Shown: in pieces, positions 1-13,167 of the stretch
Layout of the letters: the number at the start of each line of letters is the position of its first letter
Numbering within the stretch: the first letter of the stretch is position 1
Source of the DNA: an uncultured Chloroflexia bacterium
GTDB lineage: Bacteria > Chloroflexota > Anaerolineae > Anaerolineales > Anaerolineaceae
Assembly: GCA_963704755.1 (NCBI GenBank)
Contig: OY969938.1
Location: 4,380,001-4,412,000, forward strand
Reading direction: 5' to 3'
Length of the DNA stretch: 32,000 nt
Made by a program: the position numbers and the translations under genes
The notes under the pieces: model-generated
Told to the model about the DNA's origin: nothing
Databases searched by the model: none
What the model saw: only the letters and a program-made list of their open reading frames with translations

Positions 1-313
1 CGGGGTGGATTTGACCAGGATAGCCAGGGTCATGACCCCATCTTCGATGCCGGGGATGAGGATCAACAGGCAGGCCAGCAAGATCTCCGGCGGCCATTCC
101 AAAAATCAAGCCGGCCAGGGCCTCGCCCAGGGTGAACAGGGTCGCCTGGCTGAAATCGGACAGATTGGCAAACAGGGTGGCCAGAATGCGGGTCGGGGCC
201 GGCAGCAAATAGACCGGGATCGACCAGATCTGCACGGCAGCCTGCCAGCCGAGTAGAAATAACAGTACGATGACCCAGGCAACCCAGACGGAATTCCGCG
301 ATGAGGTTTTCAT
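1..313 (-). CDS. ABC transporter permease (NitT/TauT nitrate/sulfonate/taurine type), N-terminal part only, runs off window; apparent 1-nt frame disruption near 85-92
   Basis: The ATG at 313-311 overlaps the stop of the upstream ATPase gene (ATGA at 310-313). The minus-strand translation MKTSSRNSVWVAWVIVLLFLLGWQAAVQIWSIPVYLLPAPTRILATLFANLSDFSQATLFTLGEALAGLIFGMAAG is a typical N-terminus for this permease family. After about nt 90 the membrane-like reading (EILLACLLILIPGIEDGVMTLAILVKSTP) continues in another frame. Confidence 0.6.
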   Translation of the reverse strand, partial: MKTSSRNSVWVAWVIVLLFLLGWQAAVQIWSIPVYLLPAPTRILATLFANLSDFSQATLFTLGEALAGLIFGMAAGDLAGLPVDPHPRHRRWGHDPGYPGQIHP

Positions 314-1077
314 CCGGCGCTCCGCTGGACTCCGGCTGCCTGGGCGAGCGTCTGGCGCAATTCGGCCAGCAAGCGCTGGAAGGCCGGGTCGGATTCGTGG
401 CGGGGCCGCTCCAGGCGGACCGGCAGATCGGCGATGATTTTGCCAGGGGCAGCGCTCATCACCAGCACCCGGTCGGCCAGGCGCAGGGCTTCATAGACGT
501 TATGGGTTACCCATAAAACGGTGGGGTGCAGCGGACGCCAGAGGTCTAGCAATTCGACCGCCAACAATTCGCGCGTGATTTCGTCCAGAGCAGAAAAGGG
601 CTCATCCATCAACCACAGGCCGGCATCCTGGACCAGCAAGCGCGCCAGGGCCAAACGTTGCTGCATGCCGCCCGAGAGGGTAAAGGGGTATTCCCCATTG
701 AGGTTACCCAGGCCGACTCTGCTCAACGCTTCCTGCGGATCGAGCGGCGCAGCCGAGCCCGCGCGGGTAAAGCGGGCCGCCAGGGACACGTTTTGGCGGG
801 CGGTCAGCCAGGGCAGCAAGGCCGGGCTCTGGGCCATCCAGGCGACTTTTCGACTGGCTTTGACCTCGGCCGGGGATTGGCCGTCGATGCGAATACTCCC
901 GGCGGTCGGCTTGAGCAGGCCGGCCACCAGGCGCAGCAAGGTAGATTTGCCGCACCCGCTGGGTCCGACGATGGCGACAAATTCGCCGTTGTCCGCCTGG
1001 AATGACAGGCTGTCGATGGCCTTGACAGGCGGCCGGGCGGGATAGGCCAGGAATAATTGATCTACGGATAATTGCAT
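310..1077 (-). CDS. ABC transporter ATP-binding protein (NitT/TauT family, SsuB/TauB-like)
   Basis: 255-aa ORF with Walker A GPSGCGKST, ABC signature LSGGMQQRLALARLL and Walker B LWLMDEPFSALD. It is translationally coupled to the downstream permease. Confidence 0.92.
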   Translation of the reverse strand: MQLSVDQLFLAYPARPPVKAIDSLSFQADNGEFVAIVGPSGCGKSTLLRLVAGLLKPTAGSIRIDGQSPAEVKASRKVAWMAQSPALLPWLTARQNVSLAARFTRAGSAAPLDPQEALSRVGLGNLNGEYPFTLSGGMQQRLALARLLVQDAGLWLMDEPFSALDEITRELLAVELLDLWRPLHPTVLWVTHNVYEALRLADRVLVMSAAPGKIIADLPVRLERPRHESDPAFQRLLAELRQTLAQAAGVQRSAG

Positions 1078-1080
1078 GAC

Positions 1081-2223
1081 TCAGGCCTTACGATGCGGGG
1101 GTGTATTGCCGGGCAGCCCCTGCCAGCCGCGCAGAGTTTCGACTTCGACACGGAAGGCGTTTTGAACCCGCCCCGGCAGTTTGTCCTGGCCGGTTTCACC
1201 CAGGTAGCGGCGGGTCAGGCGCGCGGTCAGGCGGTTGAGCACGGCCGAGCCGGATTCATAAGGCAGCGCGCTGACCTTCCCGCGGGCGGCCAGGCGGCGT
1301 AAAGGCGGCCAGGGTTCGTCGATGGTCAACGAAACTTGCGGGTTGCCGCGCACAAATTCGGCCCAGGCGGAACCTTGCCAGGCGATCAAAGTAAAGGATT
1401 TGCCGTCCCACTCCTGCCAGACCGGGATGACGTGGGGCTGGCCATCCGGGCGGATGCAGGCCAGCCGGGCGGTCCAGGGGCCGCGCAGAAAGTCGTCGAT
1501 TTCTGCGGGTGACATTTCCAGCGCCGGGGTGATCTCTTGACGCAGCGCCGGTTGAAAAGGCTGGTAACTGAGCGCACCCAGCCGGTAGGAGAGATGAGCG
1601 GCCACCACACGCAGCTCGGGCAGCCAATTGTTGAGCGTCTCTTGCTCGTCCGCGCGGAAAGCCGGGATGCTCAACAGGACGGCCGCCTGGGGATGGCAGC
1701 CGTCCGGGCAGACCGGCACCGCCAGTTCGAGGGTATCCGGGCTGCGCACCAGGCTGTAGCCGTTGGCCAGCACTTTGCTGTCCGGGTTGTTGGTGATCAC
1801 CAGGCTGGCGGCCAGGTTGTTGTCGATGGCTTCGCCGACCCGGTACACGCTGCGCACCAGGGAATGGCCTTCGGTCTGGCCATAGACCAGGTGCCCTGCC
1901 GGCACCGGCACGACCAGGATGAGGGTCTCCGGCCAGGAAAGACGGGTGGTCTCCAGGTGGAAAGCGGCCAGGAGGTCCTGGCGGAAGTCGCCGGCGGATC
2001 CGCGCCAGGCCTGCAAGCGCGCCCCAGCGCGGTAACGGCCGCGCGTTTCGCTCTGGTCCAGGTAGCCCAGTTCTTTGAGCACCGCCAGGGTGGCGTAGAG
2101 CGAGCTGCGTGGGATGCCGGTCTCGGCCTGGATTTCGGGCGGGGCCACGCCTTCCGGCCGGGCCAGAAACAGTTCCAGCAGGGCGAGGATGCGTTCGGTT
2201 GAGGAAGCAAGGGTATCTTTCAT
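1081..2223 (-). CDS. Transcriptional regulator: IclR-type HTH plus effector domain fused to a C-terminal pyridoxamine-5-phosphate-oxidase-like (PPOX/split-barrel flavin or F420 binding) domain
   Basis: 380-aa ORF. The N-terminus ILALLELFLARPEGVAPPEIQAETGIPRSSLYATLAVLKELGYLDQ is a typical IclR winged helix. The C-terminal ~140 aa (MSPAEIDDFLRGPWTARLACIRPDGQPHVIPVWQEWDGKSFTLIAWQGSAWAEFVRGNPQVSLTIDEP...) match the PPOX-family pattern. Its stop lies 3 nt before the ATPase start. Confidence 0.8.
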   Translation of the reverse strand: MKDTLASSTERILALLELFLARPEGVAPPEIQAETGIPRSSLYATLAVLKELGYLDQSETRGRYRAGARLQAWRGSAGDFRQDLLAAFHLETTRLSWPETLILVVPVPAGHLVYGQTEGHSLVRSVYRVGEAIDNNLAASLVITNNPDSKVLANGYSLVRSPDTLELAVPVCPDGCHPQAAVLLSIPAFRADEQETLNNWLPELRVVAAHLSYRLGALSYQPFQPALRQEITPALEMSPAEIDDFLRGPWTARLACIRPDGQPHVIPVWQEWDGKSFTLIAWQGSAWAEFVRGNPQVSLTIDEPWPPLRRLAARGKVSALPYESGSAVLNRLTARLTRRYLGETGQDKLPGRVQNAFRVEVETLRGWQGLPGNTPPHRKA

Positions 2224-2255
2224 GGTTCTTAGTCTTGATTTATGGACTATCGTCC

Positions 2256-2284
2256 AATATACCAGACTGGGTGTGGAAGGTCAA
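2256..2284 (-). promoter_or_regulatory. Sigma70-like promoter for the regulator/ABC operon
   Basis: The minus strand reads TTGACC (2284-2279), a 17-nt spacer, then TATATT (2261-2256), about 30 nt upstream of the ATG at 2223. Confidence 0.5.
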
Positions 2285-2300
2285 GAGAGGAGGGAGGAGC

Positions 2301-2335
2301 GGTTAGCGATTAGCTTTTAGCGGTTAGCCGTAGGG
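2301..2335. repeat. Heptad tandem repeat NNTTAGC x4 (plus one degenerate unit); left bracket of the repeat array
   Basis: The units are ggttagc gattagc ttttagc ggttagc cgtaggg with an exact 7-nt period. This is an imperfect reverse complement of 3298-3346. Confidence 0.85.
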
Positions 2336-2394
2336 GGGTGGAGGGCTCGATTACGACATTGGTTAACCACCAACCGCACAATATTTTGAGATCT

Positions 2395-3294
2395 GCCCGT
2401 AACCCACCATCTACAACAGGAGCCAATTTTTGGGCTTTTGTCGAATTGTCGACCGATGCCGCGAAAGCACGAGGCATCGCCCTCACCCCAACCCCTCTCC
2501 CAGAAACGGGAGAGGGGCTTTTTGGCTTGCCTGACAATTTGGGTTATGCCCGGTGGGTTACGGGCAAGAGATTAGCTGGCCAAGCGCGATCATCAAACCC
2601 GGCGTTCTAAATGAGCCCTGCACCCACCATCCGTAAATGGCGCTGATTTTTTGTTTTTTGCCTGGTTGTTGACCAATGCCGCGAAAGCGCGGGGCATCGC
2701 CCTCACCCCAACCCCTCTCCCAGAAACGGGAGAGGGGCTTTTGGCTTGCCTGACAATTTGGGTTATGCCCGGTGGGTTACGGGCAAGAGACTGGCTGGCC
2801 AAGCGCGATCATCATTTCCCGGCGTTTTTAATGAGCCCTACACCCACCATCCGTAAATGGCGCTGATTTTTTGTTTTTTTTGCCTGGTTGTCGACCGATG
2901 CCGTGAAAGCACAGGGCATCGCCCCACCCCAACCCCTCTCCCAGAAACGGGAGAGGGGCTTTTTGTGGGCTGCCTGCGAATTAGCATTATGCCCGGTGGG
3001 TTACGGGCAAGAGACTGGCTGGTCAAGCGTGATCTTCAACCCCGGCGTTCTAAATGAGCCCTGCACCCACCATCCGTAAATGGCGCTGATTTTTTGTTTT
3101 TTGCCTGGTTGTTGACCAATGCCGCGAAAGCGCGGGGCATCGCCCTCACCCCAACCCCTCTCCCGTTTCTGGGAGAGGGGCTTTTTGGCTTGCCTGACAA
3201 TTTGGGTTATGCCCGGTGGGTTACGGGCAAGGTGCCTCCATGCCAAACGAGATCAACATTTCCCGGCGTTCTTTATGAGCCCTACACCCACCCT
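2395..3294. repeat. Tandem array of four ~221-bp non-coding units (plus the first 7-10 nt of a fifth), each with three conserved hairpins
   Basis: The landmark (A/C)ACCCACCAT recurs at 2401, 2621, 2841 and 3064, with a truncated CACCCACC at 3285, giving periods of 220, 220, 223 and 221 nt. Copies 2-4 are near-identical and copy 1 is diverged in its first ~50 nt. Indels between copies break every ORF frame. Confidence 0.95.
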
Positions 3295-3297
3295 ACA

Positions 3298-3346
3298 GCT
3301 AACTGCCAAAAGCTAAAAGCTAACAGCCAACCGCTAACAGCTATAA
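3298..3346. repeat. Heptad tandem repeat GCYAANN x7; right bracket of the repeat array, inverted relative to 2301-2335
   Basis: The units are gctaact gccaaaa gctaaaa gctaaca gccaacc gctaaca gctataa with an exact 7-nt period. Confidence 0.85.
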
Positions 3347-3377
3347 CATTTACAAAATCGGTAATGTAAACCTTAAA

Positions 3378-3406
3378 TTGACTCTCGTATACAGCTTTGC
3401 TATACT
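3378..3406 (+). promoter_or_regulatory. Near-consensus sigma70 promoter P1 (TTGACT-17-TATACT)
   Basis: TTGACT at 3378-3383, a 17-nt spacer containing the GTATAC palindrome, and TATACT at 3401-3406. This leaves a ~160-nt leader before the ATG at 3576. The -35 context ATTGACTCTC is identical to P2 at 4429-4438. Confidence 0.65.
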
Positions 3407-3575
3407 GATGGTGTGTTCCCCGGGTATTGTTTTTTGGTCAAGTGAGTTTTTCCCGTGAGTAACCCGCCGGTGGTGCGATCATGGCCGGGTTGGTTTATTT
3501 GTGGCAGATTAATGTTGCCCGATGAGGCGGTAAGCAGTTCATTCACATTCCATCATATCGGAACAGGAGTGTCCT

Positions 3576-4301
3576 ATGAAATTAAAGCCCCCAACATCTT
3601 TATCTGTCGATTCACTGACCCTGGACGCAGCCGAAATCGAAGGGCTTCTCCAGGGATACCCGTTGGATTTACCTCCCTGGCCGGACGCAACCATCCGCCT
3701 GAGAGACGGCCGTACCATGTACCTGCGCAGCATGCAGGAACAGGACATCCCCACCTTGCTCGGTTTTATGGAAAAGGTCATGAAGGTGGAGAAGGACTTC
3801 TATGATATCGTTGGAGTGCGAGTATACGGGGAGATTTTGGGGGTCTTGCGAAAACGCCTGAAGGATCCTTTTACCATTCTGGGGCTGGTGGATGGAGAGT
3901 TCACCGGGTTTGCTAACGGGCGGTTCTGGAGCCGCGACCTGGGGATCAGCCTGCATACCATGACTTTTGCCCGGCGGGGCCGGGTCGGCTGGGCGATGTA
4001 TTACGCGAAAACCTATTACGCGATGGAAATCTGCAAAGCCAAAGAATGGTGGACCACTTTCGAGAGCTACAATGGCTGGCGGATGGCCGGCCTGGCGATG
4101 GCTCAACCGACCAAACCCTGGCCGGAATACCAGCATGAACTGGGCGGGGCCAAAGTGTATTACATCAGCGCAGACCATTGGAACATCCAGTTGAAGAATT
4201 ACCTGGTCGAATCCATTGGCAGTGATTTGGATTTCAATGTGCCCGACGAAATCCTTAAAGCCAACGCCGTTCTACACGTTCCGGAAAAGCTCGAACTTTA
4301 A
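3576..4301 (+). CDS. Hypothetical protein with weak GNAT (N-acyltransferase)-like features
   Basis: 241-aa ORF preceded by the GGAG RBS (ggaacaggagtgtcctATG). IRLRDGRTMYLRSMQEQDIPTLLGFMEKV resembles a GNAT N-terminal strand and helix, and ARRGRVGWAMY resembles the R/Q-x-x-G-x-G/A acyl-CoA loop. The coding call is solid; the family call is tentative. Confidence 0.5.
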   Translation: MKLKPPTSLSVDSLTLDAAEIEGLLQGYPLDLPPWPDATIRLRDGRTMYLRSMQEQDIPTLLGFMEKVMKVEKDFYDIVGVRVYGEILGVLRKRLKDPFTILGLVDGEFTGFANGRFWSRDLGISLHTMTFARRGRVGWAMYYAKTYYAMEICKAKEWWTTFESYNGWRMAGLAMAQPTKPWPEYQHELGGAKVYYISADHWNIQLKNYLVESIGSDLDFNVPDEILKANAVLHVPEKLEL

Positions 4302-10818: not shown

Positions 10819-13167
10819 GTGACCAACAGAGTATTTCATAAATCCATCTTACGAAACGAAGACCCCCAAATTCTGACCGGCCGGGCCGAGTACCTGGATG
10901 ACGTGGAGCTGCCCAACATGCTCTATGCGGCCTTCAAGCGCAGCGATTACGCCCATGCCAGGATCAAGAGCCTGGAGGTTGGGGAAGCGCGTAAAATCCC
11001 GGGGGTCTATGGTGTGTACACCGCCGAGGACTTTGGCGATTACATCCAGCCGGGACCGCTGCAGGTACCTCCGCCGACTGCCATTGCGGGGTCAATCTTT
11101 ACCACGCGCACGACGATGCCGATCGCGGTGGGCAAGGTGCGCTATTCCGGCGAGCCGGTAGCGATCGTACTGGCCGAAAACCGCTATATCGCTGAAGATG
11201 CGCTGGACGCGATCTATCTGGATGTCGAGCCGCTGGAGGCGGTGATCGACCTGGAGAAGGCACTCGAACCCGGCTCACCGCTGGTGCATGAGGATACCGA
11301 ATCCAACCTGGCGGCCAACGTCAAACAGGAACACGGCAATTACGCCGAGGCGGCTGCCGGGGCTGACCTGATCGTCCGGCGCAAGATTTACGCCGACCGG
11401 CAGGCCGGGGCTGCGCTGGAAAACCGCGGCATCCTGGTGGATTGGAATGAACGATCCGGCCAGATGACCATTTGGGCCGGGACGCAGTCGCCGATCACAC
11501 TGCGCAATGCAACTGCTAGCCGGCTGGGTCTGTTCGAGAACCAGGTACGGGTCATCACGCCCTTCACCGGGGGCGGGTTTGGGCCCAAGATCAATACTTC
11601 TTTGCCGGACGACGTGCTGATCACGTACCTGGCCATGAAAGTAGGCCGGCCGGTCAAATGGCTGGAGGACCGTCGTGAGAACTTCCTGGCAACCACCTCC
11701 GAGCGCGACCAGGTCCATTACGCCGAGCTGGCCTTGACCAAAGAAGGCATTATCCTGGGTATGAAGGACGTGTTCTACCATAATTCAGGCGCCTACAACC
11801 CGTACATGATGACCGTGGCGCTGAACACCCAGACTTATACGGTGAGCAACTACCGGGTGCCAAACTTCTACACCGAAATCAAAATGGTGTTCACTAACGA
11901 AATGATCGTTACCCCCGTGCGCGGGGCCGGCCGGCCGCAGGGAGTGTTCGTGATGGAGCGTATGCTGGACGCAGCCGCGAAGGAACTGGGACTCGACCCG
12001 GCCGAGATCCGCCGGCGCAACCTGCTGCGGCCGGATGAGCTGCCTCTGCGCACCGGCATCATCGGCCAGGACTTTGTCGAGGGCGTGCTGGACAGCGGTG
12101 ATTTTCCCCAGGCGCTCGAAAAAGTGATGGACATGATCGGCTACGAGCGCTTCCGCAAAGAAATCCAGCCCAGGCTGCGGGCCGAAGGCAAACACGTGGG
12201 GTTAGGGATTTGCTGTTTTACCGAGGGAACCGCGGTAGGACCGTACGAAGGCGCCAAAGTGACCGTGGGCTCCAGCGGGAAGGTCAACGTGGCGACCGGG
12301 GTGGCTACCCAGGGCCAGGGGCATTACACCTCCTTTGCCCAGATCGTCGCCGAGCAGTTGGGGGTCGAGGTGCAGGACGTGAATGTCATCACCGGCGATA
12401 CGCACCACTTTGCCTGGGGGGCGGGTACTTTCGCCAGCCGGGGCGCGACCGTGGCGGGCACGGCGATCTACCTGGCCTCGCGGAAGGTCCGCGAAAAGAT
12501 CTTCAAAATGTCCAGCAAAATCCTGGATGCGCCCGAGGAGGAGTTGGAACTGGCGGACGGCGTCATTCGTATAGCCGATATCCCCTCGCAGTTCATCACC
12601 CTGGGCGACCTGGCCAACCGGGCCAACCCGATGCGCGGCACGATCGAGCCGGGAGTAGAGCCTGGGTTGGAAGCCGTGGCTTATTACGGCCCACCCTACG
12701 GCGCCACCGGCGCCGGCTGTATGGCCATGATCCTGGACGTGGATGCCGAGACCATGGCGGTGAAGATCGAGCGCCTGGCGATCGTACACGACTGCGGTAC
12801 GACGATCAACCCGATGATCGTGGAGGGGCAAATCCACGGCGGAATTCAAATGGGGATCGGAAATGCCTTTTTCGAAAAAATATTTTATGACGAAAACGGC
12901 CAGCTCTTGACCGCATCTTTTATGGATTATCTCTTCCCGCAGGCCACCGATATGCCGGCCAGGATCGAGATGGGTCACCTGGAGACACCGACGCCGTTGA
13001 ACCCCCTGGGCATCAAGGGCGTGGGGGAGGCTGGGGCAATCCCCGGTCCGGCAGCGTTCAACCAGGCTTTGGAGGATGCCCTTTACGATACCGGCATCGA
13101 GTTGATGGAAACCAACCTTAATCCCAGCAAAATTTTTGGCTATGTCCAAAAGGCCAGGGGCGGCTGA
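10819..13167 (+). CDS. Molybdopterin-hydroxylase large (Mo-cofactor) subunit, xanthine-dehydrogenase family; not a form-I CO dehydrogenase
   Basis: GTG start after a GAGGAGG RBS, 782 aa. Family motifs are RNEDPQILTGRAEYLDD, GGGFGPK, GQGHYTSFAQIVAEQLG and KGVGEAGAIPGPAA. The active-site loop reads TPVRGAGRPQG, not the VAYRCSFR of genuine CODH. Confidence 0.9.
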   Translation: MTNRVFHKSILRNEDPQILTGRAEYLDDVELPNMLYAAFKRSDYAHARIKSLEVGEARKIPGVYGVYTAEDFGDYIQPGPLQVPPPTAIAGSIFTTRTTMPIAVGKVRYSGEPVAIVLAENRYIAEDALDAIYLDVEPLEAVIDLEKALEPGSPLVHEDTESNLAANVKQEHGNYAEAAAGADLIVRRKIYADRQAGAALENRGILVDWNERSGQMTIWAGTQSPITLRNATASRLGLFENQVRVITPFTGGGFGPKINTSLPDDVLITYLAMKVGRPVKWLEDRRENFLATTSERDQVHYAELALTKEGIILGMKDVFYHNSGAYNPYMMTVALNTQTYTVSNYRVPNFYTEIKMVFTNEMIVTPVRGAGRPQGVFVMERMLDAAAKELGLDPAEIRRRNLLRPDELPLRTGIIGQDFVEGVLDSGDFPQALEKVMDMIGYERFRKEIQPRLRAEGKHVGLGICCFTEGTAVGPYEGAKVTVGSSGKVNVATGVATQGQGHYTSFAQIVAEQLGVEVQDVNVITGDTHHFAWGAGTFASRGATVAGTAIYLASRKVREKIFKMSSKILDAPEEELELADGVIRIADIPSQFITLGDLANRANPMRGTIEPGVEPGLEAVAYYGPPYGATGAGCMAMILDVDAETMAVKIERLAIVHDCGTTINPMIVEGQIHGGIQMGIGNAFFEKIFYDENGQLLTASFMDYLFPQATDMPARIEMGHLETPTPLNPLGIKGVGEAGAIPGPAAFNQALEDALYDTGIELMETNLNPSKIFGYVQKARGG

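Follow-up and report, generated by a model that had tools for sequence, protein, structure and literature searches.

The DNA between two divergently transcribed operons of a Bellilinea-like Anaerolineaceae bacterium is probably a lineage-specific, non-coding cluster of structure-prone repeats resembling the BIME/REP clusters, most likely without a dedicated function. Judged by its sequence, each repeat has at its core a variant of the known BoxC/triplex-motif hairpin of Escherichia coli, and the block is an unusual member of a known repeat class, not a novel type of element. The core of each ~220-bp unit is a BoxC/PIT/TM-type motif containing a perfect 10-bp hairpin, with the hairpins H1 and H3 on its flanks. 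In the history that we infer, this unit and its flanking DNA would have multiplied in tandem through replication slippage or unequal recombination at short direct repeats (ACCCACC), and partial gene conversion and 'flip' inversions of hairpins would later have remodelled the copies. An inverted pair of heptanucleotide microsatellites encloses the array, which occupies an insertion-tolerant slot between divergent promoters, and any effect that it has would be architectural, for example spacing or the absorption of supercoils between the two promoters. Signatures at the level of DNA are the inverted loop of unit 4, the flipped H3 half at the left edge, the ACCCACC 7-mer at both ends, the mosaic identity of the copies and the lower variability of the stems. 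All coordinates (Table 1) refer to the window, the whole 32-kb stretch of DNA that was analysed.

Table 1. Features of the repeat block and its surroundings, in window coordinates.
Feature	Position	Strand	Description
ABC-transporter ATPase	310-1077		second in leftward operon, after the regulator
IclR-HTH + PNPOx-domain regulator	1081-2223	-	Pfam PF09339, PF01243; first gene of leftward operon
Palindrome TGGACTATCGTCCA	2243-2256	.	next to -10 of regulator promoter; candidate operator
Predicted sigma-70-type regulator promoter	2256-2284	-	TTGACC-17-TATATT; 10/12 matches, TG-extended
Left heptad array (NNTTAGC) x4-5	2298-2331	.	TRF period 7, 4.4 copies, 2298-2328
Flipped H3 half GCCCGTAACCCACC	2395-2408	.	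left edge of array
Unit 1	2402-2621	+	220 bp; most diverged copy
Unit 2	2622-2841	+	220 bp
Unit 3	2842-3064	+	223 bp; 1-nt deletion in triplex leader
Unit 4	3065-3285	+	221 bp; H2 loop inverted (GTTTCT)
Fifth unit start	3286-3292	+	ACCCACC only
H1 hairpin	2454-2479, 2674-2699, 2896-2921, 3117-3142	+	units 1-4
BoxC/TM-type motif CCCCTCTCCC-GTTTCT-GGGAGAGGGG-TT-GGGGTGAGGG	2480-2517	-	H2 + leader; relaxed TMECO pattern, G4 scan, literature motif
BoxC/TM-type motif, further copies	2700-2737, 2921-2958, 3143-3180	-	units 2-4
H2 hairpin CCCCTCTCCC-N6-GGGAGAGGGG, then CTTTT(T)G	2492-2517, 2712-2737, 2933-2958, 3155-3180		4/4 units
H3 hairpin GCCCG-GTGGGTTA-CGGGC	2548-2565, 2767-2784, 2991-3008, 3211-3228	+	units 1-4
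Right heptad array (GCYAANN) x7	3295-3346	.	TRF 7.0 copies, 3295-3343; period-21 superstructure
Predicted sigma-70-type catabolic-operon promoter	3378-3406	+	TTGACT-17-TATACT; conserved in L002, L018
Conserved 241-aa protein, no Pfam domain	3576-4301	+	first gene of AllF/FdrA-AllG-cyclase-molybdoenzyme operon

Four tandem units of ~220 bp and the 7-nt start of a fifth occupy 2402-3292. TRF detects an array of period 220 at 2446-3292 (3.8 copies, 87% matches), which confirms the ~221-bp tandem units of the original prediction; ACCCACC stands at 2402, 2622, 2842, 3065 and 3286, in each case one base to the right of the unit start proposed there (2401, 2621, 2841, 3064 and 3285). The truncated fifth unit that had been predicted is present at 3286 but consists of the ACCCACC alone, and the same 7-mer therefore bounds the array at both ends. 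Copies of the unit are 82-92% identical to each other, with the remaining 8-18% divergence distributed in a mosaic pattern, and the first 60 nt of unit 1 show just ~70% identity to the remaining units. Unit 3 carries a compensatory GTG/CAC change in H1, while the H2 loop of unit 4 is flipped from AGAAAC to GTTTCT. The 14-nt inverted repeat claimed for the left edge is real, 2395-2408 being the perfect reverse complement of 2552-2565.

The three hairpins recur in all four units. H1 had been given a consensus beginning GATGCC, but units 2 and 4 have A instead of G at its first base. The description of the other two holds: H2 is found in every unit and scores as terminator-like on the + strand only (H2 with CTTTT(T)G is present in four copies against 0.01 expected by chance), and the loop of H3 is complementary to the ACCCACC that opens each unit. 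When the H1/H2/H3 structure is laid over the units, 97% of cells pair, against 33-54% with the partners slid, and variable columns are scarcer in the stems (3/50) than among the other columns (65/182; p = 1.5e-5). Covariation in the stems is not above that of shuffles (240/500). H1 contains one compensatory pair (GCG/CGC to GTG/CAC), two one-sided stem changes lead to A-C mismatches on the + strand, and RNAalifold predicts a long-range helix in place of H1/H3, without compensatory pairs; the fold of the whole unit is unexceptional (z = -1.4 to -1.7). The conserved stems, together with the single compensatory pair in H1, could reflect selection for function, and to that extent they speak against a function-less reading.

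The first reading had found no described family to fit the block, and had overlooked the C-rich leader CCCTCACCCCAA, which is part of the H2 element. Taken with this leader, H2 carries the three blocks of the BoxC/PIT/TMECO family (PMC4666352), and the claim falls. The blocks CCCTCNCCC / GGGNGAGGG / GGGNGAGGG occur in order in three of the four units under a relaxed TMECO pattern, which matches the - strand at 2480-2516, 2700-2736 and 3143-3179 with 0 matches expected by chance; unit 3 fails this pattern because of the 1-nt deletion, which lies in its third block. The strict published pattern (loops of N3-6 and of exactly N3) gives 0 matches because the second loop is 4 (or 2) nt long where 3 are required. 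The first loop of the motif measures 6 nt and the second 4 nt (GTTG), the latter shrinking to 2 nt when the stems are taken as 10 nt long. On inspection, an antiparallel alignment of the two G blocks gives eight G·G triads, one A·A and one T·A over 10 positions, and the purine arm of H2 can in principle accept a third strand from the leader, as an intrastrand triplex, or fold into a G-quadruplex on the - strand. Each copy of the motif is also a canonical G-quadruplex motif on that strand; four of the seven such motifs in the window lie in the array, and relatives have 0.026 per kb. The four TM copies of the array are the only ones in the window, with none in the other 31 kb, and neither the TMECO pattern nor the unit was found in ~0.93 Mb of related Anaerolineaceae DNA. 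Copies of the TM motif that are 85-93% identical occur in Azospirillum, Xanthomonas, Cupriavidus, Enterobacter, Deinococcus and cyanobacteria.

The TMECO motif is described as an intergenic, multi-copy element that forms triplexes in vitro and is found in association with rearranged loci (Holder 2015, PMC4666352). The array shares with this family the blocks CCCTCTCCC, GGGAGAGGG and GGGTGAGGG, identical in sequence and order, as well as an intergenic position in a rearranged, variable locus, conserved stems with a variable loop, and near-identical copies across distant taxa. There are differences as well. The second loop is 3 nt in the family, whereas here it has the 4-nt or 2-nt form; the published census covers Proteobacteria, with related G/C-rich triplex motifs noted in cyanobacteria (PMC4666352), whereas the host here belongs to Chloroflexota; and the E. 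coli K-12 copies are singletons or inverted pairs, whereas the present copies are embedded in a 220-bp composite unit and stand four head-to-tail.

As outlined in PMC3733652 and PMC2817692, BIMEs are G+C-rich palindromes at regular spacing that are reiterated in tandem with flanking DNA. REP elements and BIMEs are built from short, imperfect palindromes of alternating orientation, and they reach high copy number in genomes that encode a cognate RAYT transposase. The array resembles them in part: its G+C-rich palindromes are regularly spaced and reiterated together with flanking DNA, and H3 and its flipped partial copy at each unit start alternate in orientation. Unlike BIMEs, it has all its TM hairpins in one orientation, a much longer unit (220 bp, with three different hairpins) and no RAYT gene in the window. 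Most REP super-families carry a GTAG or CGTC tetranucleotide tag at one end, whereas inspection of the flanks revealed no such tag adjoining H1, H2 or H3; and REP/BIME clusters usually lie at gene 3' ends, whereas this array lies between divergent promoters. An independent parallel is found on the chromid of Xanthomonas sacchari, in an array of 141 bp x4.3 (NZ_CP010410.1, 409118-409729; L009, 857-1468). Each of its units has the same TM hairpin with a GGGAGAGGGGCTTT(T)GGCT tail, in a single orientation, and this array also sits between divergently transcribed genes; outside the TM hairpin its units bear no relation to those described here, having different hairpins and an outer GTACCCTCA/TGAGGGTAC stem, heptad brackets are missing, and the phylum is different. 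A Chloroflexota MAG (L062) contains a 161-bp x2.3 cluster with a more diverged TM-like hairpin that gives no TMECO-pattern match. Elsewhere, TM-type hairpins are arranged as inverted doublets, in L008 and L011, and border genes for DUF559 endonucleases in other phyla.

The placement of the block between two divergent operons agrees with what had been predicted, with predicted promoters reading outwards on the - strand (2284-2256) and the + strand (3378-3406). The regulator promoter lies 14 nt from the left heptads, and the catabolic promoter 32 nt from the right heptads. Synteny of the regulator gene is conserved in relatives. The arms of the palindrome beside the regulator promoter are conserved in L002 as TGGACTTGCGTCCA, and we regard this palindrome as a candidate operator. 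The same intergenic region is variable: it measures ~365 bp in the shortest relatives, in Bellilinea it contains one DsbA-like gene and in L004 it contains three genes, and in 19 of the 19 relatives where it was measured the array is absent. The block fills a variable, insertion-tolerant slot between two promoters.

The inverted heptad brackets had also been described correctly, with four copies at 2301-2328 (GGTTAGC/GATTAGC/TTTTAGC/GGTTAGC) and seven GCYAANN at 3298-3346; the left array is inverted relative to 3302-3335, with 79% complementarity over 34 nt. Cyanobacterial STRR-type repeats are heptameric SSRs, and the bracketing arrays are of this type, comprising at least three tandem degenerate heptanucleotide copies in intergenic DNA; on this second point, too, the view that no described family fits was mistaken. 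Like the heptameric SSRs of filamentous bacteria, they are degenerate intergenic arrays close to promoters or start codons. Published examples include the TAACTGA repeats of Beggiatoaceae (PMC4679880) and heptamer repeats in Nostoc and Xanthomonas (PMC4692102). The identical TTAGCNN/NNGCTAA heptads occur in the same inverted arrangement on plasmid pPg_01 of Pseudanabaena galeata (L095), where the arms are 65-80 nt apart, whereas here ~970 nt separate them, with the 220-bp array in between. L062 has another heptad array, upstream of its orthologous gene, and the papers that we consulted contain no report of the TTAGCNN heptad from Chloroflexota.

As the original prediction had it, the block is non-coding, and it belongs neither to Rfam nor to the CRISPR or IS elements. 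Its ORFs of 63-91 aa shift frame between units, without a convincing Pfam family or a protein homologue, and a protein-coding repeat was rejected. Pfam returned one sub-threshold match for seven array ORFs (DUF6116, E 0.07, 13.5 against a 27-bit cut-off), and the translation of a unit ORF, used to detect spurious ORFs annotated on homologous repeats, had no match in a protein database of 5.8 billion clusters. Rfam at E <= 10 over 2000-3800 gave chance matches to Antizyme_FSE on H2 only. CRISPR arrays consist of short 24-48 bp repeats split by unique spacers, with cas genes nearby; here there are no unique spacers, because the whole 220-bp period is homologous between copies, and no cas domains occur in the window. 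Replicon iterons were likewise rejected, given the lack of a rep gene and the chromosomal, catabolic context. The window contains no transposase, RAYT or DUF559 gene, the ORFs scanned have no Y1-transposase domain, and DUF559 remnants are absent from the array, the window and the relatives.

Public collections were queried solely by exact pattern or by BLAST. An exact 20-mer of H3 had 0 matches in the GTDB species representatives, and its single match in JGI metagenomes (L001) turned out to be an ordinary terminator hairpin without relation to the unit; in IMG/VR, neither of two degenerate unit-specific patterns had a match. By BLASTN, the block had no match in phages, and in plasmids nothing beyond the TM part and the heptads was matched; megablast with 25 kb of the window likewise gave no plasmid match, and neither flanking protein had an exact match on record. 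A profile (nhmmer) and covariance-model search with the H1-H3 core over ~1 Mb of loci returned TM-type hairpins and no homologue of the unit, and H1, H3 and the 55-nt tail had no homologue anywhere searched. Literature searches with raw sequence strings retrieved eukaryotic G4 and primer papers only.

It is unlikely that the block acts in cis as an architectural or insulator module, in which four triplex-, G-quadruplex- or cruciform-forming units absorb the negative supercoils generated by transcription, or bind a nucleoid protein, and so uncouple or coordinate the regulator promoter and the catabolic promoter. The position of the block exactly between the two predicted -35 elements, at the short distances given above, would suit such a role, as would the preferential conservation of the hairpin stems, the concentration of G-quadruplex motifs in the block relative to relatives, and the similar placement of the X. 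sacchari array between divergent genes; moreover, in Nostoc the behaviour of promoters was changed by heptamer repeats in their vicinity (bioRxiv 10.1101/2022.06.06.494920). Against it, all 19 relatives measured do without such a block, and no general regulatory role has been found for TMECO/PIT elements in E. coli (PMC4666352).

A multicopy sRNA locus, one of the candidates put forward originally, would produce a + strand transcript from each unit, ending at the H2 terminator, and thus a set of near-identical structured sRNAs. We consider this distinctly unlikely. The + strand terminator-like hairpin in 4/4 units, the integrity of H1, H2 and H3 in all copies, the conserved stems and the compensatory H1 pair are consistent with it, but no promoter-like site on the + strand is conserved across units, even at a relaxed threshold, and the sole candidate is a weak TGGTCA-18-AAAAAT on the - strand, where there is no terminator. 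Nor do the stems covary significantly; the A-C mismatches fall on the + strand, unit 4 has its H2 loop inverted, the fold z-scores are unremarkable, Rfam provides no match, and searches of the GTDB species representatives, JGI metagenomes, IMG/VR, plasmids and phages yielded no homologous unit. Earlier work, as cited in PMC4666352, has PIT elements without terminator activity in E. coli, which weighs against H2 as the end of an sRNA and equally against the terminator array that had been proposed, for which there is also no incoming transcription to stop.

The third original candidate, a non-autonomous or REP-like element, comes closest of the three. As a mobile element of the MITE or REPIN kind, either the heptad-bracketed block as a whole or a ~171-bp element between 14-bp terminal inverted repeats (2395-2408 / 2552-2565) would have been inserted, the latter then being amplified. 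The perfect inverted repeat in unit 1 and the inverted heptad arrays provide the terminal repeats expected of a MITE, the block is missing at the orthologous site in relatives, and TM-type hairpins elsewhere occur in inverted doublets and beside DUF559 genes. Such an origin is nevertheless improbable. Inspection of the sequence revealed no target-site duplication at the block edges, the window encodes no transposase, RAYT or DUF559 protein, and no second copy was found in the window, related loci, GTDB representatives, JGI metagenomes, IMG/VR, plasmids or phages. In addition, the tails between the elements are homologous between units, and the array is therefore the product of tandem duplication rather than of successive insertions.

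It is a long shot that the array is a functional DNA-structure module or, in a related reading, an amplified non-autonomous derivative of a DUF559-driven system. If the former were true, the four units would switch among hairpin, intrastrand triplex and G-quadruplex, would sense or absorb the negative supercoiling of the divergent promoters and would couple or insulate the IclR-type regulator and the catabolic operon, and the inverted heptad arrays just upstream of each promoter would belong to the module. If the latter were true, BoxC/TM hairpins would be the cis-elements of a mobile system driven by DUF559 (Vsr-like) endonucleases, comparable to REP and RAYT. Finally, 220-bp tandem repeats are a known source of mis-assembly, but a copy number inflated or collapsed by the assembly is barely credible, since artefact copies would be near-identical and the mosaic divergence of 8-18% between units, with unit-specific substitutions, indels and an inverted loop, argues against it.

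Read as a BIME/REP-like cluster of structure-prone repeats, the block requires no new mechanism and indicates no function, and it is therefore of practical use mainly for annotating repeats and as a natural test case of duplication induced by DNA structure. The BoxC/triplex motif, a puzzle since the 1990s, is now placed in Chloroflexota, where its core sequence is near-identical, and the same inverted heptad microsatellite is common to an Anaerolineae bacterium and a filamentous cyanobacterium. Together with the Xanthomonas array and the diverged L062 cluster, the array shows such hairpins repeatedly nucleating tandem arrays of themselves and of flanking DNA, a recurrence in line with the proposed role of triplex motifs as a cause of local genomic instability.

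Tandem Repeats Finder returned one array of period 220 (2446-3292; 3.8 copies, 87% matches) and two of period 7 (2298-2328 and 3295-3343). The units start at ACCCACC as the original prediction had it, with the true starts lying one base further right than the coordinates it gave. The three hairpins proposed for each unit (H1, H2 and H3) were confirmed: 97% of alignment cells pair under the three-hairpin structure, sliding the partners by 1-3 columns lowers this to 33-54%, and the H2 pattern matches four times against 0.01 expected by chance. Also borne out were the terminator-like score of H2 with CTTTT(T)G on the + strand only, the exact 14-nt reverse complement between 2395-2408 and 2552-2565, and the mutual inversion of the heptad arrays (79% complementarity over 34 nt). 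Three features had been overlooked: unit 4 has an exact inversion of the H2 loop (AGAAAC to GTTTCT), the H2 element also includes the C-rich stretch CCCTCACCCCAA lying upstream of the hairpin, and the whole-unit fold has no unusual stability (z = -1.4 to -1.7, as RNA of either strand and as DNA). Stem columns are far less variable than the others (3/50 vs 65/182, Fisher p = 1.5e-5). The palindromes are thus maintained, for which selection and hairpin-templated correction are both possible causes.

Features of the repeat block, its surroundings and the corresponding slot in relatives
Feature	Position or length	Strand	Remarks
Unit starts (ACCCACC)	2402, 2622, 2842, 3065, 3286		
H1	2454-2479 (unit 1)		in all four units
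H2, perfect 10-bp G+C hairpin	2492-2517 (unit 1)		in all four units
H3	2548-2565 (unit 1)		in all four units
Triplex motifs doubling as short-loop G-quadruplex (GGGAGAGGGGTTGGGGTGAGGG)	2480-2501, 2700-2721, 2922-2942, 3143-3164	-	
IclR-HTH/PNPOx regulator	1081-2223	-	
Conserved 241-aa protein	3576-4301	+	
AllF/FdrA-like, AllG, cyclase, xanthine-dehydrogenase-family molybdoenzyme, permease			downstream of 241-aa gene
Predicted sigma-70-type promoter, TTGACC-17-TATATT	2284-2256	-	
Predicted sigma-70-type promoter, TTGACT-17-TATACT	3378-3406	+	kept in relatives
pPg_01 inverted heptad pairs (L095)	1342-1373 / 1438-1565; 2645-2705 / 2784-2830		intergenic, between cas genes
Slot, shortest relatives (L024, L030-L032, L092)	about 365 bp		no gene
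Slot, some Bellilinea-like MAGs	420-585 bp		no gene
Slot, Bellilinea caldifistulae and allies	about 1.06-1.11 kb		DsbA-like gene
Slot, L004 (L005-L007 by gene table)	about 2.0 kb		three genes
Slot, this window	1352 bp		repeat block

A BLASTN search of plasmids with the block matched two parts only, a ~45-nt segment formed by the leader and H2, and the right heptads. The leader and H2 segment is 85-93% identical to intergenic sequences of Azospirillum, Xanthomonas, Cupriavidus, Vitreoscilla, Enterobacter, Pantoea, Deinococcus and several cyanobacteria, and reads CCCCTCTCCC-GTTTCT-GGGAGAGGGG-TT-GGGGTGAGGG on the - strand. The original prediction had recognized no described family; this segment carries the three blocks of the BoxC/PIT/'TMECO' intrastrand triplex motif (TM), whose consensus is 5'-CCCTCNCCC N3-6 GGGNGAGGG N3 GGGNGAGGG (Holder et al. 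2015, PMC4666352). A relaxed TMECO pattern (second loop of 2-4 nt) matches three of the four units, unit 3 being missed through a 1-nt deletion, while the strict pattern (N3 second loop) matches none of the four; H2 with its leader is thus a variant of this motif that differs in loop length. By inspection, 10 consecutive purine-motif triads are possible with the two G blocks of the H2 element. The same stretch doubles as a canonical G-quadruplex (G4) motif, and four of the window's seven G4 motifs lie here (density in related loci, 0.026 per kb); the feature conserved across phyla may thus be a competition between hairpin, triplex and G4. In E. coli K-12 TMECO is always intergenic, with 23 copies, five as inverted pairs; 3610 were counted in 262 proteobacterial genomes, triplexes form in vitro, TMECO loci are more rearranged than control sites, and no regulatory role has been demonstrated (PMC4666352). 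Earlier work, as cited in PMC4666352, found neither promoter nor terminator activity in PIT elements.

The heptads likewise have a described family, being of a known heptameric SSR type found near promoters and start codons in cyanobacteria, Beggiatoaceae and Xanthomonas (PMC4679880, PMC4692102, bioRxiv 10.1101/2022.06.06.494920), with a counterpart in Pseudanabaena. On the Pseudanabaena galeata plasmid pPg_01 the window's heptads (TTAGCGA, TTAGCTT / AGCTAAA, AGCTAAC) recur twice between cas genes, in the same 5'-(TTAGCNN)n ... (NNGCTAA)n-3' arrangement as in the window and with arms 65-80 nt apart; 39 places in the record match the heptads. The window, of Anaerolineae origin, thus shares the TTAGCNN / NNGCTAA heptad family with a cyanobacterium. 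In a Chloroflexota MAG (L062 5685-5804), an array of another heptad (TCCGTTC x15.6; TCCGTTC/ATCTCCG, 15-copy) is found upstream of the 241-aa orthologue.

For the T-rich tract, H1, H3 and the 55-nt tail, no homologue could be detected in plasmids, phages, IMG/VR, GTDB representatives, JGI metagenomes or ~1 Mb of related loci. Xanthomonas sacchari (L009) shares the window's TM hairpin and its GGGAGAGGGGCTTT(T)GGCT tail, likewise in a tandem array of single orientation; this array (141-bp x4.3) is located between divergently transcribed genes. L062, in which a neighbour protein is 63% identical, holds a more diverged TM-like hairpin (CCTCCCCC...GGGGGAGG then GTTGGGTAGGGG) in a 161-bp x2.3 cluster of alternating orientation, with no match to the TMECO pattern. 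The Cupriavidus and Azospirillum hairpins are inverted doublets. Of such hairpin-built repeat clusters, the window's array is a version with a long period and three hairpins. In L062 the heptad array and the 241-aa orthologue are followed about 6 kb downstream by this BIME-like cluster (12361-12719), with a G4 motif per hairpin; its diverged hairpins and the TM copies of L008-L012 and L094 are likewise canonical short-loop G4 motifs.

With predicted promoters of canonical sigma-70 type on both sides, the block occupies exactly the gap between two -35 elements. This inter-promoter space is a variable slot, and in 19 of 19 relatives where it was measurable it lacks any array. The 241-aa protein has its homologues in Anaerolineae; identity to the best is only ~80%, and the nearest among GTDB representatives are from Bellilinea species. 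The protein is highly conserved in Anaerolineae (>1000 homologues, many invariant residues), where it heads the AllF/AllG/cyclase/molybdoenzyme operon; it has no Pfam domain and is labelled N-acetyltransferase by some sources. Directly beside the -10 of the regulator promoter is the palindrome TGGACTATCGTCCA (2243-2256), with arms that are kept in a relative (L002) as TGGACTTGCGTCCA; it probably serves the IclR-PNPOx regulator as autoregulatory operator. The ~165-nt leader (3407-3575) that separates the 241-aa ATG from the predicted -10 of the catabolic promoter is of similar length in relatives and has no Rfam match at E <= 10.

That the block has an architectural role between the two divergent promoters, or insulates against supercoiling there, is conceivable, if unlikely. 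Both promoters are predicted to fire away from the block, and therefore no transcription arrives at the H2 'terminators'. Evidence for RNA function is weak, and a multicopy sRNA locus is a doubtful proposition: even a relaxed threshold reveals no + strand promoter that is conserved, the sole promoter candidate is weak, on the - strand of units 2-4 and without a terminator, and Rfam gave no match. Furthermore, the lone compensatory pair in H1 is not above shuffles (240/500), and two one-sided stem changes produce A-C mismatches on the + strand. We also consider a MITE- or REPIN-like mobile element improbable. An assembly artefact is scarcely credible, since the four units share 82-92% identity, distributed as a mosaic, and are therefore distinct copies, with no duplication by the assembler.

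Three distant lineages have BoxC/TM-type hairpins beside a gene for DUF559 (Vsr-like endonuclease), an adjacency that by analogy resembles the REP-RAYT relationship. In Azospirillum the hairpin precedes the gene by 35 nt (L008 301-345; gene from 380), in Deinococcus aetherius an inverted hairpin pair exactly brackets it (L094 701-736, 1098-1131; gene 738-1082), and in E. coli K-12 (L096, NC_000913.3) TMECO no. 9 (1006-1040) is 168 nt downstream of ycjD (1208-1561). DUF559 was not detected at ten other inspected TM loci. The authors of PMC4666352 report no mobility genes in the vicinity of TMs, and DUF559 is not mentioned there.

The same 7-mer, ACCCACC, bounds the array at both ends. This is the footprint of slippage, or of illegitimate recombination, acting on short direct repeats, by which the tandem duplication would have arisen. 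Unit 1, the edge copy, is the most diverged, which together with the mosaic identity suggests conversion; this would then have reshaped the unit copies. Two palindromes have also flipped, one being the loop of H2 within unit 4 and the other the H3 half at the left edge. Such signatures are those of DNA-level dynamics. Because of them, the weak case for RNA function and the lack of transcription reaching the 'terminators', we favor as the likelier reading a BIME-like cluster of structure-prone repeats, amplified within a permissive slot and without dedicated function. The families of the core hairpin (here with a loop variant) and of the heptads are already described, and tandem amplification has precedents; new are the host phylum, the composite unit of 220 bp with its three hairpins, and the nesting of this unit within a pair of inverted heptad arrays in the exact space that separates two promoters.
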